NCBI GenBank assembly: GCA_017610175.1
Contig: JAFCCO010000002.1
Span: forward strand, 43,319-107,318
Length of the DNA stretch: 64,000 nucleotides
Origin: Candidatus Iainarchaeum sp.
GTDB taxonomy: Archaea > Iainarchaeota > Iainarchaeia > Iainarchaeales > GCA-2688035
Direction of reading: 5' to 3'
The position numbers and the translations under genes are program-made. Each line of letters opens with the position of its first letter. Position 1 is the stretch's first letter. The notes beneath the pieces were generated by a model that saw only the letters and a program-made list of their open reading frames with translations, did not search any database and was not told where the DNA came from. Of the stretch, positions 3,672 through 59,791 are shown in pieces.

Positions 3672-3876
3672 CTGTTTGAAGCCAAGCCAGCGCCTGCCGA
3701 TAGCTTTAAATAGATTGCTTGCACCAATTTTATTTGATGACCTCAAAAGGCGATTCACTTTGGCTTCAATAAGGCCTTACCTGATTTAACTAGCCTTTTG
3801 AATGCAAATTCTAACCTAATTCAGCCATGGCTCTGGGCCTGGTTCACGCCGTAGGGCAAAGCATTGGAAAAAAGTT

Positions 3877-3949
3877 GGGGTTATAGCATAACCTGGTAGT
3901 GCAGGCGGCTCCAGACCGTCGGATCAGGGTCCGAATCCCTGTAACCCCA
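3877..3949 (+). tRNA. tRNA-Trp (anticodon CCA), no intron, CCA not encoded
   Basis: Hand-folded cloverleaf: acceptor GGGGTTA/TAACCCC, D-stem GCAT/GTGC, anticodon stem GGCGG/CCGTC with loop CUCCAGA, T-stem CAGGG/CCCTG. The T-loop is TCCGAAT, with C at position 55, which is unusual. A T-rich tract follows. Confidence 0.7.
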
Positions 3950-4033
3950 CTAATTTTTTCTTTTCAAAAAAGAAAAAAATTAACCAAAAGAAAACTAAAA
4001 TGAAAACTGAAAACAGAACCCAGTGAACAAACG

Positions 4034-5632
4034 ATGATTTCAGAAAAGGAACTCGGAAAGTTTGGAAAGGGAACAATTGTTCCAATAGTAAAGGAAATAA
4101 GTAGCGGCCAGCATGCCCTAGACTTCTTTGCAAAGCTTTCAGATTACGGCAGGCAGAAAAACTCAATTCTCCTTGAGTCGGCCGATGTAATGAAGAAGTA
4201 CGGTGAAAAAAGCATCGGTTCAGCAGACCCATGCCTCAAAGTGCAGGGGACGGGGTCCGAATTTGAAATTGCCGCGCTAAATTCGCTTGGGGAAAACTTT
4301 CTTGAATTCATTAAGCCAGGCCTTGGTTTTGTAAAGGACATTGAATTCTCAAAGGACTCAATCAAGGGAACGCTCTCGGTTGCTGCCGGAAACGTAAGCG
4401 AGGAAGAAAGGCTCAGGCTCAAAACACACGCAGACATTCTTCGCGCAATCTCCTTCGCATTCAAGCCAAGCCAGAAGCCGTTTACCCCATACTCCGGCTT
4501 GTTTGGTGCAATCTCCTATGATTTCATTGACCAGTTTGAAAAGCTTCCCGCAAACAGGCAGGACAAGCTAAACGACCCGGATTATGAATTGCTTTTTCTC
4601 GACAACCTTTTCCACGTGGACCACGAAAAGCAAAAGTATTCCTTTGTTGCGAACGCGCTTCTCACAACCGATGATACCGGACCTGTTTATGAAAAATGCC
4701 TGAAGAGAATTGATGCGATGGAGAAAATCCTCTCCAAGGAAATTCCTGAAAGCAAAAAGGTTTCGAAGAAGGTTGAGATTCAAACAGACGTTTCGGACAA
4801 GGAGTACGCTGAAATAGTTGAAAAAATGAAGGAACACATTACTGCAGGGGACGTTTTCCAGATTGTTCCAAGCAGAACATTTTCTACAAAGGTGTCTGCA
4901 GAGCCGCTTGACATTTACTCAAAGCTTCGCGAGCTAAATCCCTCACCCTACATGTTTTATTTCAGGAATCAGTTGGGTATATTGCTTGGAAGCAGCCCTG
5001 AAACATTTCTCAAGGTAGAGGGTGGGAAAGAGAAAACGATTGAAATCAGACCGATTGCGGGAACGCGCAGGCGCGGCATTGTAAACGGAAAAATTGACGA
5101 GAAGCTTGACTTGGAGCTGGAAAAAGAGCTTCGCGCCGATGAAAAGGAGCTTGCAGAGCACACAATGCTTGTTGACCTTGCAAGAAACGACGTTGCGCGC
5201 GTTTCAAAGCCGGGAACAAGGCATGTGGACAAGCTGCATATTGTTGAGAGATACAGCCATGTAATGCACTTGGTGAGCAGTGTGCACGGGACACTCAAGC
5301 CCGAGCTTGACGCTTTGCATGCATACCTTGCCTCAATGAATATGGGAACCCTTACCGGCGCACCAAAGATTAAGGCAATGGAGCTCTTAAGAAAATACGA
5401 AAAGAACAAGCGCGGCTTTTACGGCGGGTCGGTTGGGTACTTTACGCCAAGCGGCGACTTTGACTCCTGCATTGTAATCAGAAGCATGCGCATCAAAAAG
5501 GGTGAAGCATTCATTCGCGCGGGCGCCGGAATTGTTTTTGATTCAGTTCCCAAAAAAGAGGCTGCTGAAACAACCGCAAAGGCACAATCCTGCATTTCAG
5601 CAATTAAGAAGGCACAGGGGGACTTCGAGTGA
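4034..5632 (+). CDS. trpE: Anthranilate synthase component I
   Basis: Chorismate-binding enzyme motifs (LLESAD..., GAGIVFDS); 532 aa; first gene of the trp operon. Confidence 0.95.
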   Translation: MISEKELGKFGKGTIVPIVKEISSGQHALDFFAKLSDYGRQKNSILLESADVMKKYGEKSIGSADPCLKVQGTGSEFEIAALNSLGENFLEFIKPGLGFVKDIEFSKDSIKGTLSVAAGNVSEEERLRLKTHADILRAISFAFKPSQKPFTPYSGLFGAISYDFIDQFEKLPANRQDKLNDPDYELLFLDNLFHVDHEKQKYSFVANALLTTDDTGPVYEKCLKRIDAMEKILSKEIPESKKVSKKVEIQTDVSDKEYAEIVEKMKEHITAGDVFQIVPSRTFSTKVSAEPLDIYSKLRELNPSPYMFYFRNQLGILLGSSPETFLKVEGGKEKTIEIRPIAGTRRRGIVNGKIDEKLDLELEKELRADEKELAEHTMLVDLARNDVARVSKPGTRHVDKLHIVERYSHVMHLVSSVHGTLKPELDALHAYLASMNMGTLTGAPKIKAMELLRKYEKNKRGFYGGSVGYFTPSGDFDSCIVIRSMRIKKGEAFIRAGAGIVFDSVPKKEAAETTAKAQSCISAIKKAQGDFE

Positions 5633-6210
5633 ACGTTTTATTCATTGACAACTTTGATTCATTCACCTACAACCTTGTGGACGAGTTTGCAAAACGCGGC
5701 TGTGAGGTCCGGGTTTACAGGAACGACGCTCCGCTTGAGAAAATTGAGCAGGTTGTTTTGGAATTTAACCCGGCTCTTATAGTGATAAGCCCCGGTCCGT
5801 CAACTCCAAAGGATGCGGGGGTCTCAATTTCCGCAATAAAGGAGTTTGCGGGAAAAGTTCCGATTTTTGGAATCTGCCTGGGGCACCAGTGCATTGTTGA
5901 GGCATTTGAGGGGGAGGTAGGGCAGGCGCCTGAAATAGTGCATGGAAAGCCGTCCCAAATCAAGCACGACGGCAAAACAATCTTCAAAAACATTGAAAAC
6001 CCGTTTCAGGCAGGCCGTTACCACTCTCTGACAGGTTTAAATATTCCTTCGTGCCTTGAAGTTAGTGCAAAGGCAAACGATGTGGTTATGGGCGTAAGGC
6101 ATCGCAAGCAATTCATTGAGGGAGTTCAATTCCACCCGGAAAGCATTCTTACAAGGGAAGGCGGGAAAATTATTGAAAATTTAATTAAATTGTGCGGGAA
6201 CAAAAAATGA
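5629..6210 (+). CDS. trpG: Anthranilate synthase component II (class I glutamine amidotransferase)
   Basis: GATase motifs GICLGHQ and HPES; overlaps the trpE stop by 4 nt. Confidence 0.93.
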   Translation: MNVLFIDNFDSFTYNLVDEFAKRGCEVRVYRNDAPLEKIEQVVLEFNPALIVISPGPSTPKDAGVSISAIKEFAGKVPIFGICLGHQCIVEAFEGEVGQAPEIVHGKPSQIKHDGKTIFKNIENPFQAGRYHSLTGLNIPSCLEVSAKANDVVMGVRHRKQFIEGVQFHPESILTREGGKIIENLIKLCGNKK

Positions 6211-7223
6211 TTGGGCAATTTGTTGAAAAGGCTTCAAAAGGGGAAAACCTTTCAAGGAAAGAGGCAAGGGAGGCATTTGACCTCATAATGGCCGGAAAGG
6301 TTGAAACACCTGAAATTAAGGAACTGCTTATTGCACTGCGCGACAAGGGCGAAACAATTGATGAGATAAGCGGTGCAGCCGAAAGCATGAAAGATGTTGT
6401 TGCAAACGTTTCCCCAAAAACAGACAAGCCATTGCTTGACATTGTTGGAACAGGCGGCGACTGCAAGAGCACAATCAATGTAAGCACAGCGTCAGCCTTT
6501 GTTGCCGCAGGGGCAGGATGCATTGTTGCAAAGCACGGAAACAGGAGTGTTTCCAGCAAATGCGGCTCTGCTGATGTTCTTGAAAAGCTGGGCGTAAAGC
6601 TTGAGTGCGGCAACGAGAAAAACACGCGGATGATTGAAAAGATTGGCATTGCTTTTTTGTTCGCGCCATGCCACCACCCTGCAATGAAATTTGCAATTCC
6701 TGCGCGAAAGGAAATCGGGACAAGGACAATTTTCAACATTTTAGGGCCGCTCACAAATCCAGCAAATGCACAAACTTTCTTGCTCGGGATATTCTCTCTT
6801 GAGCTGGCGGAGAATCTTGCAGGCGTTCTGGCCAATCTAAAAATAGGGCACGCGCTTGTTGTGCACGGCAACGACGGCTTTGACGAGATTTCGGTCAGCG
6901 ATGCGACAACGGTTTTTGAGGTAAAGGGCGGAAAGATTGAACGCTATGAAATTTCACCTGAACAGTTTGGGTTTCAGCGTGCAAACGAGAGGGATATAAA
7001 GGTGTCAAGCATTGAGGAAAATGCAACCGTTCTGAAGGCAATTCTTTCAGGGAAGGAAAAGGACGCAAAGCGGGACATCGTTGTTTTTAATGCGGGTGCG
7101 GCAATCTACGTAAACAATCTTGCTTCAAGCATTGGAGAGGGAATTGAAAAGGCCAGGCAAAGCATTGATTCGGGCTCGGCGCTTAAAAAACTTGAACAGC
7201 TTGTAGAGGAGAGCGGCAAATGA
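6192..7223 (+). CDS. trpD: Anthranilate phosphoribosyltransferase
   Basis: GTGGD motif and the NILGPLTNPA region. Confidence 0.93.
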   Translation: MREQKMIGQFVEKASKGENLSRKEAREAFDLIMAGKVETPEIKELLIALRDKGETIDEISGAAESMKDVVANVSPKTDKPLLDIVGTGGDCKSTINVSTASAFVAAGAGCIVAKHGNRSVSSKCGSADVLEKLGVKLECGNEKNTRMIEKIGIAFLFAPCHHPAMKFAIPARKEIGTRTIFNILGPLTNPANAQTFLLGIFSLELAENLAGVLANLKIGHALVVHGNDGFDEISVSDATTVFEVKGGKIERYEISPEQFGFQRANERDIKVSSIEENATVLKAILSGKEKDAKRDIVVFNAGAAIYVNNLASSIGEGIEKARQSIDSGSALKKLEQLVEESGK

Positions 7224-43143: not shown

Positions 43144-43280
43144 GCCGGCGTGGCGGAGCGGTCAAACGCGGTGGCCTTGAGGCACCCTTTCTTTGAAAGA
43201 AAGCGTGCACGGAAAGAATCCGTGGGTGCAAGTGAGCCATTTTCCGAAAGGAAGCACAGGTTCGAATCCTGTCGCCGGCG
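43144..43280 (+). tRNA. tRNA-Ser (anticodon TGA) interrupted by a roughly 53-nt intron after position 37
   Basis: Class II tRNA fold. Acceptor GCCGGCG/CGCCGGC; D-arm GCG-GAGCGGTCAAA-CGC, near-identical to the neighbouring tRNA-Ser(GGA); anticodon stem GTGGC/GCCAT; anticodon loop CU-UGA-G then an insertion at 43182-43234 whose ends pair GCACCC/GGGTGC; long variable arm TTTCCGAAAGGAAGC; T-arm ACAGG-TTCGAAT-CCTGT. The exact splice junctions and the BHB geometry are not resolved by eye. Confidence 0.65.
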
Positions 43281-43282
43281 AA

Positions 43283-43322
43283 CACCCTTTCTTTTGGGAA
43301 AAGAAAGCGTGTACGGAAAGAA
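43283..43322 (+). repeat. 40-nt imperfect direct copy of the 5' part of the tRNA-Ser intron (43183-43218), located 3 nt after the tRNA
   Basis: CACCCTTTCTTT[GA/TGGGAA]AAGAAAGCGTG[C/T]ACGGAAAGAA; 35 of 36 non-loop positions identical; the internal hairpin CTTTCTTT/AAAGAAAG is preserved in both copies; the offset is exactly 100 nt. Confidence 0.6.
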
Positions 43323-43381
43323 AAATAGTTTCAAGAGAAAAAGAAAAGATAGGTTTCAAAAAGAAAATCTTTTTGAGAACT

Positions 43382-43465
43382 GCGGAGGTGGCGGAGCGGT
43401 TAAACGCGCCAGCTTGGAAAGCTGGTTCCTTCACGGGAGCGCGAGTTCGAATCTCGTCCTCCGCG
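43382..43465 (+). tRNA. tRNA-Ser (anticodon GGA), intronless
   Basis: Acceptor GCGGAGG/CCTCCGC; anticodon stem CCAGC/GCTGG with loop UUGGAAA; long variable arm; T-loop TTCGAAT; followed by T9. Confidence 0.85.
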
Positions 43466-43541
43466 CTTTTTTTTTGTTAAAAAATCGTGTTGCATATGGT
43501 TTTTTATAGTTCTTTGAGTATACTTATTTTGGGTGAATTTA

Positions 43542-59161: not shown

Positions 59162-59791
59162 TTATGCACCAACCGCCTTTTTTATGAATTTCCTGAACGG
59201 GAACCTTCCGTAAACAATGTCCCGCCCTGCAAAATGCTTCAAAACCCCGTCTTTTGGATAGCCCATTTTTACCGCAAGCTTTGCGGAAAGGATGTCAGCC
59301 ATCAGTTCCTCTGCCTGCTCAAAGCTCAGCCCGTAATGCATTGCAAACCCTGAGAGTGCCGGCTTTGGAAAGTGCGCATACTCGTGTGCAAGGGTAAAGA
59401 TTCCCCCAATTGTCAGCTTGTCGCCCTCGAACAAGTGCTCTGAAGGCATGTTGATGAAGTCGCTTTTTACCGCAAAAGCCCTGGTTCCCTTTTGGTAAAT
59501 TGTAATCTGGTTCACGTGCTCGCCCTTTACAACGCTTGCCATAACCCTTCCCCCTGCCCGAATTATTCGCTCGCGCAGGTTTCTTCTTGGGTAAAAGTAT
59601 ATTGGGGTTGTTTCGACATTGCGGCGCATCAGGCCGTAAATCTTTTCAGAGAGCTTGTCCGGCGCGCTCTTGTGCAGTTCCTTGAGGGCCTTTACAGCCT
59701 CTTTTCTGAATTTGTCAAGTGCCTTCTTTCGCTTGTTTGAAAGAATTGGCTTTTTGAAAAAAAGAAAAAGCATGAAACATAAAATGCTCAA
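59162..59791 (-). CDS. Putative zinc metallopeptidase-like protein (HExxH)
   Basis: The motif LAHEYAHF is the only recognisable feature. Confidence 0.4.
   Translation of the reverse strand: MSILCFMLFLFFKKPILSNKRKKALDKFRKEAVKALKELHKSAPDKLSEKIYGLMRRNVETTPIYFYPRRNLRERIIRAGGRVMASVVKGEHVNQITIYQKGTRAFAVKSDFINMPSEHLFEGDKLTIGGIFTLAHEYAHFPKPALSGFAMHYGLSFEQAEELMADILSAKLAVKMGYPKDGVLKHFAGRDIVYGRFPFRKFIKKAVGA

Follow-up and report, generated by a model that had tools for sequence, protein, structure and literature searches.

A three-part purine-tailed element shared by the intron and the trailer of an archaeal tRNA-Ser(UGA) gene, and its kin at other tRNA exon ends

Introduction

The tRNA-Ser(UGA) gene of Candidatus Iainarchaeum sp. 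carries two near-identical copies of a single element, one at the start of its intron and the other in the trailer just beyond its 3' end, and the repeat is a three-part element on the tRNA sense strand, not a two-part hairpin. A pyrimidine arm (Y) is followed by a complementary purine arm (R) and then, after 7-8 nucleotides (nt), by a purine tail that is the mirror image of the second arm (R'). The stretch analysed here, hereafter the window, is 64 kb of contig JAFCCO010000002.1. On balance, we favour a reading in which these copies belong to a Y-R-R' family housed at tRNA exon ends, the pair in the window arose by local copying, and the element plays a fold-back 'bookend' role; its identity and evolutionary account are well supported, and the functional account is weak.

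Archaeal tRNA introns are usually seen as featureless spacers, apart from the splice motif and an occasional C/D-box guide such as the methylation guide encoded by the archaeal tRNA-Trp intron. How such introns arise and move is a question on which an element of defined design, shared between intron and trailer, has a direct bearing.

The repeat at the tRNA-Ser(UGA) locus

The original prediction placed an intron-containing tRNA-Ser(UGA) with an intron of ~53 nt at this locus and proposed a covariance model as the check. The Rfam tRNA model bears it out, finding an insertion of 56 nt in the anticodon loop and leaving the tRNA model unrefuted. We call the gene an intron-bearing tRNA-Ser(UGA) because in-silico joining of 43144-43181 to 43235-43280 restores a full tRNA of 84 nt, with the intron at the canonical position 37/38. 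ARAGORN missed the gene when run without its intron option and, when run with it, reported a 53-nt intron misplaced by 1-2 nt and mislabelled the anticodon. A 3-4-3 bulge-helix-bulge can be drawn by hand at the splice sites (Table 1), of which RNAfold reproduces the anticodon stem and the outer helix and leaves the 4-bp central helix open. The window is archaeal, with the 3' end of an archaeal large-subunit rRNA and an archaeal RNase P RNA.

The repeat comprises two ungapped blocks, an exact 12-mer (43183-43194 and 43283-43294) and a 23-mer identical at 22 of 23 positions (43196-43218 and 43300-43322), the latter found in the window at up to three mismatches at those two sites only and in none of 100 shuffles. 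Across the ungapped blocks 34 of 35 positions are identical, which upholds the location, content and near identity of the repeat as first described and replaces its count of 35 matches in 36. Copy 2 begins 2 nt past the discriminator base, G43280. Every difference between the copies keeps or extends the hairpin: the altered loop brings an extra T:A pair, and the lone base change within the blocks, C43208>T43312, has its counterpart in G43182>A43282, immediately beyond the repeat as first delimited, which retains the closing pair. Sequence and RNA folding together confirm that the stem is intact in both. As RNA, the hairpin of copy 1 has a predicted energy of -12.3 kcal/mol (z -3.4), and within the intron its tail also pairs to form another hairpin, CACGGA/UCCGUG. 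The absence of C/D boxes from the intron likewise holds, a motif search finding neither RTGATGA nor CTGA in the intron (43182-43234) or the spacer (43281-43381).

A description of the element as a hairpin was correct as far as it went, and missed the mirror-repeat third part, the related element behind tRNA-Trp and the recurrence of the design in relatives. The R arm is closed by a clamp of 3-4 bp, which in the Ser copies is CAC:GTG across a C.C mismatch. Since arm lengths differ among elements and a multiple alignment would be arbitrary, we used a purpose-built three-block scan covering both strands of the whole window, with stems of at least 8 nt, at most one mismatch and, in a second run, relaxed loops. 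It returned exactly three sites, one in the Ser intron and one each in the trailers of tRNA-Ser and tRNA-Trp, every one of them on the tRNA sense strand, with stems of 8 nt (one mismatch), 9 nt (none) and 10 nt (one), respectively; shuffled windows yielded no motif in 20 attempts, nor in 10 with the relaxed settings. A separate hairpin scan of the window found strong pyrimidine/purine hairpins at the same three places only (3954-3978 for Trp). The other intergenic DNA of the window, likewise A/T-rich, holds no element, and no Rfam family matches it.

Table 1. Features of the tRNA-Ser(UGA) locus and of the tRNA-Trp trailer, in window coordinates
Feature	Position	Strand	Details
tRNA-Ser(UGA) gene	43144-43280	+	Rfam tRNA model 46.7 bits
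5' exon	43144-43181	+	
Intron	43182-43234	+	53 nt
3' exon	43235-43280	+	CCA not encoded
Bulge-helix-bulge, hand-drawn 3-4-3	43171-43240	+	read directly off the sequence
Anticodon stem	43171-75 / 43236-40	+	GUGGC / GCCAU
Central helix	43176-79 / 43229-32	+	CUUG / CAAG
5' bulge	43180-82	+	AGG; cut 43181/43182
3' bulge	43233-35	+	UGA; cut 43234/43235
Outer helix	43183-87 / 43224-28	+	CACCC / GGGUG
Copy 1 (intron)	43182-43219	+	
Copy 1 clamp	43182-85 / 43205-08	+	GCAC / GTGC; C.C mismatch 43186/43204
Copy 1 pyrimidine arm	43187-94	+	CTTTCTTT
Copy 1 purine arm	43196-203	+	AAAGAAAG
Copy 1 linker	43204-11	+	CGTGCACG
Copy 1 mirror tail	43212-19	+	GAAAGAAT, GAAAGAA(T)
Copy 2 (3' trailer/spacer)	43282-43324	+	blocks 9/9/9, 0 mismatch
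Copy 2 clamp	43282-85 / 43309-12	+	ACAC / GTGT; with C.C mismatch
Copy 2 pyrimidine arm	43287-95	+	CTTTCTTTT; followed by loop GGG
Copy 2 purine arm	43299-307	+	AAAAGAAAG
Copy 2 linker	43308-15	+	CGTGTACG
Copy 2 mirror tail	43316-24	+	GAAAGAAAA
Rest of spacer	43337-43381	+	purine blocks AAAAAGAAAAG ... AAAAAGAAAA; hairpin 43351-43381
tRNA-Ser(GGA), no intron	43382-43466	+	101 nt downstream of tRNA-Ser(UGA)
Third element (tRNA-Trp trailer)	3955-3994	+	between tRNA-Trp (3877-3950) and trpE (4034-5632)
Third element, pyrimidine arm	3955-64	+	TTTTTCTTTT; followed by loop CAA
Third element, purine arm	3968-77	+	AAAAGAAAAA; followed by linker AATTAAC
Third element, mirror tail	3985-94	+	CAAAAGAAAA

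Recurrence of the design in relatives

The protein neighbours point, by sequence similarity, to uncultured DPANN archaea as the probable relatives: a TrpE relative is labelled Candidatus Diapherotrites archaeon and shares a 97-kb contig with the closest named PurH relative. A PurH search of the genome collection gave only bacterial relatives, at 33-47% identity. Among loci fetched by PurH-anchored synteny (numbered with the prefix L), the tRNA-Ser(UGA)-tRNA-Ser(GGA) pair follows purH in L008/L009, where both genes are intron-less and 36 nt apart, and in L011, where both have introns; in L013 tRNA-Ser(UGA) lies ~2.2 kb downstream of PurH, and L010, L012, L014 and L015 have other genes after purH. 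Further archaeal tRNA-Ser genes came from a metagenome scan with the tRNA-Ser 3' end, and the Trp loci of relatives were obtained through TrpE, independently of the motif. Introns in the relatives' tRNA-Ser genes are 44-239 nt long and stand at the canonical position, splicing in silico at 37/38 to a full tRNA-Ser in all eight relatives tested; genes with introns of at least 119 nt are missed by the Rfam tRNA model and were confirmed by such splicing.

The fetched loci, ~429 kb in all, contain the motif in L026 (three times), L028, L033, L069 and L081, to which a scan with relaxed loops adds L011 and L080. It always lies in a tRNA-Ser intron or a tRNA trailer and on the tRNA strand, a lone unrelated match in L025 excepted; no class I arrangement was found there. 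With the window this makes 12 elements in 8 loci (the window and 7 fetched), all on the tRNA strand, and in every case the element starts 0-3 nt after the cut site at a tRNA exon end, be it the 5' splice site or the mature 3' end. Stems in the relatives are 8-13 nt and the second loop is 5-8 nt, or 11 nt in L011.

The very start of the intron is occupied in L028, L033 and L026/L063 (all CGA), in L069 (UGA) and, with relaxed loops, in the tRNA-Ser(GGA) of L011, with three copies along the 184-nt intron of L026/L063; the L054 (CGA) intron has a similar initial hairpin and A-run, but no three-block motif even in the relaxed scan. The trailer of L026/L063 has an element right after the discriminator base, reading CAC-TTTTTCTTTTTT-AG-AAAAAAAGAAAA-CGTG-CATT-AAAAGAAAAAAA, which aligns with copy 2 of the window at a score of 29, reached by 0 of 2000 shuffles, and with copy 1 at a score of 26, reached by 1 of 2000. 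tRNA-Trp lies just upstream of trpE in all fetched Trp loci (L077/78, L080, L081/82 and L083), and two of these four lineages, L080 and L081, have the element 1-2 nt past the tRNA, their sequences differing and their pairing kept. The L080 arms are T6CT5/A5GGA5/A4GA5, found with relaxed loops; L081 has perfect blocks of 13/13/13 and a 19-bp hairpin, likewise perfect, of -23.3 kcal/mol (z -5.4). A promoter role was rejected, the distance from element to trpE start varying from ~12 to 48 nt and that to the tRNA end being fixed.

The three-part design is shown by these occurrences to be specific to tRNA genes in this lineage. From the sequences compared, it is the design that has been kept across several uncultured Diapherotrites lineages, and not the sequence.

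The mirror tail and its triplex potential

Errors of replication or copying yield direct or inverted repeats, not mirror repeats. In 11 instances the longest exact match of the tail to the mirror of R is 6-12 nt; nine of them have matches of 7-12 nt with p = 0.0000-0.0046 against shuffled tails. The mirror match exceeds the direct-repeat match in six instances, equals it in four and falls short of it in one. The clearest mirrors are those of L026 (A7GA4 against A4GA7), copy 2 of the window (A4GA3G against GA3GA4) and L028 (A3GA4 against GA4GA3), and the mirrored length reaches 9 of 9 in copy 2, 11-12 in L026, 8 of 8 in L033/L069 and 9 of 10 in L028.

Holder et al. (2015, PMC4666352) define a class II intrastrand triplex motif by the succession of pyrimidine, purine and reverse-Hoogsteen domains along a single strand, with stems of 6-15 nt, at most one mismatch and loops of 1-6 nt in the ITxF definition (PMC4666352). 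Stems longer than 11 nt never occurred in scrambled genomes, and in bacteria class II motifs are linked to local genomic instability (PMC4666352). Judged by sequence, the design described here is exactly that required of an intramolecular purine-motif triplex: all three window elements and all the relatives' elements have the domain order of class II, and their stem lengths (8-10 nt in the window, 8-13 nt in relatives) and mismatches lie within its limits.

How the two copies arose

The window holds two paralogous elements 100 nt apart and not a tRNA relic, because diverged versions hold both positions in relatives, as in L026, with its elements at the intron start and in the trailer. We infer from their sequences that the near identity of the pair reflects recent local copying, by gene conversion or template switching, probably through the shared CACCC; most simply, an earlier element stood at one or both of these positions in the window too, and one was overwritten by a copy of the other. 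The window intron has its first 7 nt (GCACCCT) and its last 10 nt (GTGCAAG.GA) in common with the intron of L013, which has no element. The direction of copying leans, on sequence grounds, from trailer to intron at the CACCC microhomology, because the CAC/GTG clamp and the CGTGCA linker are common to the window element and the L026 trailer element, and the closest Ser(UGA) introns (L013 and L011) are without the element.

Two splicing-related candidates were rejected. Copy 2 as a transposed intron fails in that it is intergenic and its 5' bases, CGGC GAA, cannot pair with CAAG for a central helix; an alternative bulge-helix-bulge pairing CACCC/UACGGA of copy 2 with GGGUG/UCCGUG of the intron fails in that the neighbouring bases cannot form a 4-bp central helix.

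A possible function

With low confidence, we suggest that the element acts as a fold-back 'bookend' placed directly 3' of tRNA exon ends. At the RNA level its hairpin would supply a helix abutting the cleavage site, and in the intron its first 5 nt would serve as the outer helix of the bulge-helix-bulge; this predicted outer-helix role would account for an element that persists at the intron start when the remainder of the intron is variable and expanding. A DNA structure is proposed in addition because the mirror tail lacks an explanation at the RNA level: the tail would confer class II intrastrand triplex potential on the non-template strand of these genes, which are highly transcribed, and the triplex might pause or stop RNA polymerase after the tRNA and, by analogy with the bacterial motifs, might render the locus prone to duplication and expansion. 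The bolder claim that a conserved triple-helix-type element marks tRNA exon boundaries in a DPANN lineage, acting as an RNA polymerase pause/stop or a processing signal, seems to us improbable. A bacterial-type terminator was rejected, as no T-run follows the hairpin on either strand, and so, as a general explanation, was a switch between alternative hairpins, in which the tail would pair with the pyrimidine arm over 9-11 bp in the Trp elements and over only ~7 A:U pairs in the Ser elements.

Several points weigh against the bookend reading and the account of copying. Four of the six tRNA genes in the window have no element, nor do the Trp loci of L077/78 and of the AR10-like L083, which make up two of the four Trp lineages, and the relatives sampled are few, most of them reached through tRNA-Ser genes. 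The Trp elements are so nearly symmetric that mirror and direct repeat are indistinguishable in them. The first loop is 1-3 nt long, but the second is over the class II limit, measuring 7-8 nt in the window elements and 11 in L011; part of it is the 3' strand of the clamp helix. Any triplex here must be one of DNA, because the purine motif does not form triplexes in RNA (PMC4666352). A polymerase stop within an intron would be harmful, yet the element occurs in introns, and those of L026 carry T5-T6 runs. tRNA-Ser(GGA) lacks a TTTWAAA box at -37..-30, unlike most other tRNA genes of the window, and may be co-transcribed with tRNA-Ser(UGA); as it seems to have no TATA-like box of its own, read-through of copy 2 is implied. 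Finally, pairwise similarity scores of such low-complexity sequences favour neither direction of copying.

Alternative explanations

An unlikely alternative to the bookend reading is that the element is a signal in RNA only, a U/A hairpin with a single-stranded purine tail bound by a tRNA-maturation protein or ribonucleoprotein, whose task would be removal of the 3' trailer, splicing or protection of the released fragment, the triplex potential being incidental. It would account for a hairpin placed 0-3 nt past the cleavage site in both contexts and preserved through all differences between the copies, for a tail unpaired in every minimum-energy fold of the trailer elements and for the read-through into tRNA-Ser(GGA) that seems necessary. 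It leaves unexplained why the tail tracks the run lengths of the R arm, in mirror order, across lineages; some hairpins are weak (-6.1 kcal/mol for the window Trp trailer), the tail of the intron copy is sequestered in the second hairpin, and the element has no Rfam family, K-turn or C/D signature. Of three explanations offered originally for the downstream copy, that of a site reused outside the intron comes closest to the data, its role in processing or protein binding being a prediction only.

Somewhat less likely again is the absence of any function, the element being unstable low-complexity DNA generated by slippage or template switching in T-rich terminators and introns and the two copies an accidental duplication. 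Tandem expansions in the introns of L069 and L033, intron lengths of 44-239 nt, the presence or absence of the Ser(GGA) intron between close relatives and the link of such motifs to instability in bacteria (PMC4666352) all fit this explanation. Copying errors, however, do not produce mirror repeats, which are full-length in copy 2, L026 and L033/L069; the element is missing from all other A/T-rich intergenic DNA of the window, and its position and orientation relative to the tRNA are fixed.

It is very improbable, and largely refuted, that copy 2 is all that remains of a 100-nt tandem duplication or of a third intron-bearing tRNA-Ser gene, since decayed. The spacing of exactly 100 nt suits it, as do a would-be second unit that ends exactly at the first base of tRNA-Ser(GGA) and neighbouring tRNA-Ser genes similar enough to recombine (families D1 and D2). 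However, 43219-43282 and 43323-43381 have no residual similarity: the 59 nt that follow copy 2 resemble the intron 3' half and 3' exon no better than chance would have it (776 of 2000 shuffles score as well). Neutral decay is incompatible with this pattern, given that the first 40 nt are ~97% identical. The suggestion of a tandem tRNA-Ser relic or pseudogene also finds no tRNA-like signal in the spacer, where the Rfam tRNA model has no match even at E<=10; homologous trailer elements follow intact tRNA genes (tRNA-Trp of the window, tRNA-Ser(CGA) of L026), and a real relic, the bare T-arm and acceptor in L024, looks different.

Least credible of all is an origin as the attachment-site remnant of an integrated element or virus, or as a miniature mobile element. 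Integrative elements of archaea do duplicate a portion of the tRNA gene that they target (PMC3293823), and L025 has such a duplication of a tRNA 3' end, but what is repeated in the window is intron and not the 3' part of the tRNA, nothing except the remainder of the gene separates the copies, of which the 64 kb hold just two, no integrase was noted among the open reading frames (ORFs) at 40.5-46 kb (not scanned against family libraries), and 2.9 million viral contigs gave no matches.

Further observations at the tRNA loci

The part of the spacer at 43337-43381 is a partial second element from which the pyrimidine arm is absent, and 43337-43377 aligns with the interior of the L011 tRNA-Ser(GGA) intron (score 34, 0 of 2000 shuffles). 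Intron-like sequence thus adjoins the intron-less tRNA-Ser(GGA) on its upstream side, which the account given above does not explain. In L011 the same tRNA has a 77-nt intron (4916-5075), where the window and L008 (5120-5203) have none, and the downstream flank of the gene is nearly identical in L011 and the window, which points to a recent intron gain or loss. Downstream of the tRNA-Ser pair lies a small antitoxin-like ORF (window 43544 onward), accompanied in L011 (5152-5628) by a ParE-toxin-like gene, and their promoter region is nearly identical in the window and L011. Upstream of the Ser(UGA), Ala and Arg genes the TTTWAAA box stands at ~-37 to -30, and slightly farther for Leu. Elsewhere in the window, 59723-59775 holds an A/T-rich hairpin cluster, CTTCTTTC...GAAAGAAT and then GCTTTTTGAAAAAAAGAAAAAGC, which lacks the three-block arrangement.

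Among the relatives, introns of 137-239 nt contain TGGGAAAAGAA four times in L069, a 43-nt unit three times in L033 and several hairpin-plus-tail units in L026, and appear to be growing by local repeat expansion. L024 (~3863-4009) has an intron-containing tRNA-Ser followed, 8 nt on, by a bare T-arm/acceptor fragment of another tRNA-Ser, which is a genuine tRNA relic. Downstream of 5428 in L025, as oriented, the last 13 nt of a tRNA-Ser are repeated twice at 66-nt spacing in the manner of an attachment site.

At the other end of the window, tRNA-Trp(CCA) stands directly upstream of a same-strand trp operon (trpE, trpG and trpD; 3877-7223 with the tRNA), the gap to trpE being only 20 nt in the AR10-like genome (L083); a tRNA-Trp beside the operon that makes its amino acid suggests coupled expression or regulation. 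Between a TTTAAATA box and tRNA-Trp lies a non-coding stretch of ~170 nt (~3700-3876) that L077 and L081 conserve. It has TGATGA and CTGA boxes and no significant Rfam match, and is a candidate C/D-box small RNA that may share a transcript with the intron-less tRNA-Trp.

Relation to known systems

In its position at 37/38, its drawable 3-4-3 motif and the normal tRNA-Ser(UGA) that splicing gives, the intron is a canonical archaeal bulge-helix-bulge intron; it departs from the ordinary kind in that its 5' two-thirds are a copy of an element also found outside the gene. The tRNA-Trp methylation guide would share with it the housing of a functional element in a tRNA intron, but there are no C/D boxes in the Ser intron or spacer, and the tRNA-Trp of the window is intron-less. 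Fujishima and colleagues are said to have described, in 2010, transposition of tRNA introns and late intron gain in the Thermoproteales. Similar intron-type sequence at several places and related elements in Ser UGA, CGA and GGA introns recall those transposed introns, whereas copy 2 of the window is intergenic, with no bulge-helix-bulge around it, and all introns are at the canonical position.

The closest likeness in design is to the bacterial PIT, BoxC and TMECO class II motifs (PMC4666352), with which the present elements, their stems 8-13 nt long with 0-1 mismatch, share the domain order, a far greater rarity in shuffled sequence and loci that are rearranged, duplicated and expanded. The elements described here differ in being archaeal and A/T-rich rather than G/C-rich, and in a second loop of 7-11 nt that arises from the 3-4 bp clamp; TMECO has flanking genes without consensus (PMC4666352), whereas the present elements are tied to tRNA exon ends in a fixed orientation. 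Their triplex is one predicted from sequence. GAA/TTC-type purine tracts form triplexes and R-loops and arrest transcription (PMC7515735); GA-rich mirror-symmetric purines on the non-template strand are common to both and slowing of RNA polymerase is plausible, but those tracts are long expansions in a eukaryotic intron, as against blocks of 8-13 nt with an inverted repeat.

A model from Caldiarchaeum subterraneum has a tRNA gene disrupted by integration of a mobile element, with a 1.8-kb recombinase-encoding insertion and a tRNA-exon fragment (Sugahara et al. 2012, PMC3293823). There, gain or loss of tRNA introns at the population level and stray tRNA-gene fragments near tRNA genes resemble what is seen here, where there is no insertion and no recombinase and the copied part is intron only. 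Our literature search, which was not exhaustive, found no description of an element placed in this way at tRNA genes.

Implications

A functional element would amount to a new cis-acting signal in the transcription or maturation of archaeal tRNA, and to one of the rare examples from nature of a triplex motif under selection and at a well-defined place in the genome. An element without function would still offer a concrete route by which flank and intron exchange sequence and tRNA introns grow, from 44 to 239 nt. On the bolder claim of an element that marks exon boundaries, its presence both at trailers and at the 5' ends of introns would also be direct sequence evidence of exchange between intron and trailer, and would mean that introns can be built from flanking sequence, or the reverse.

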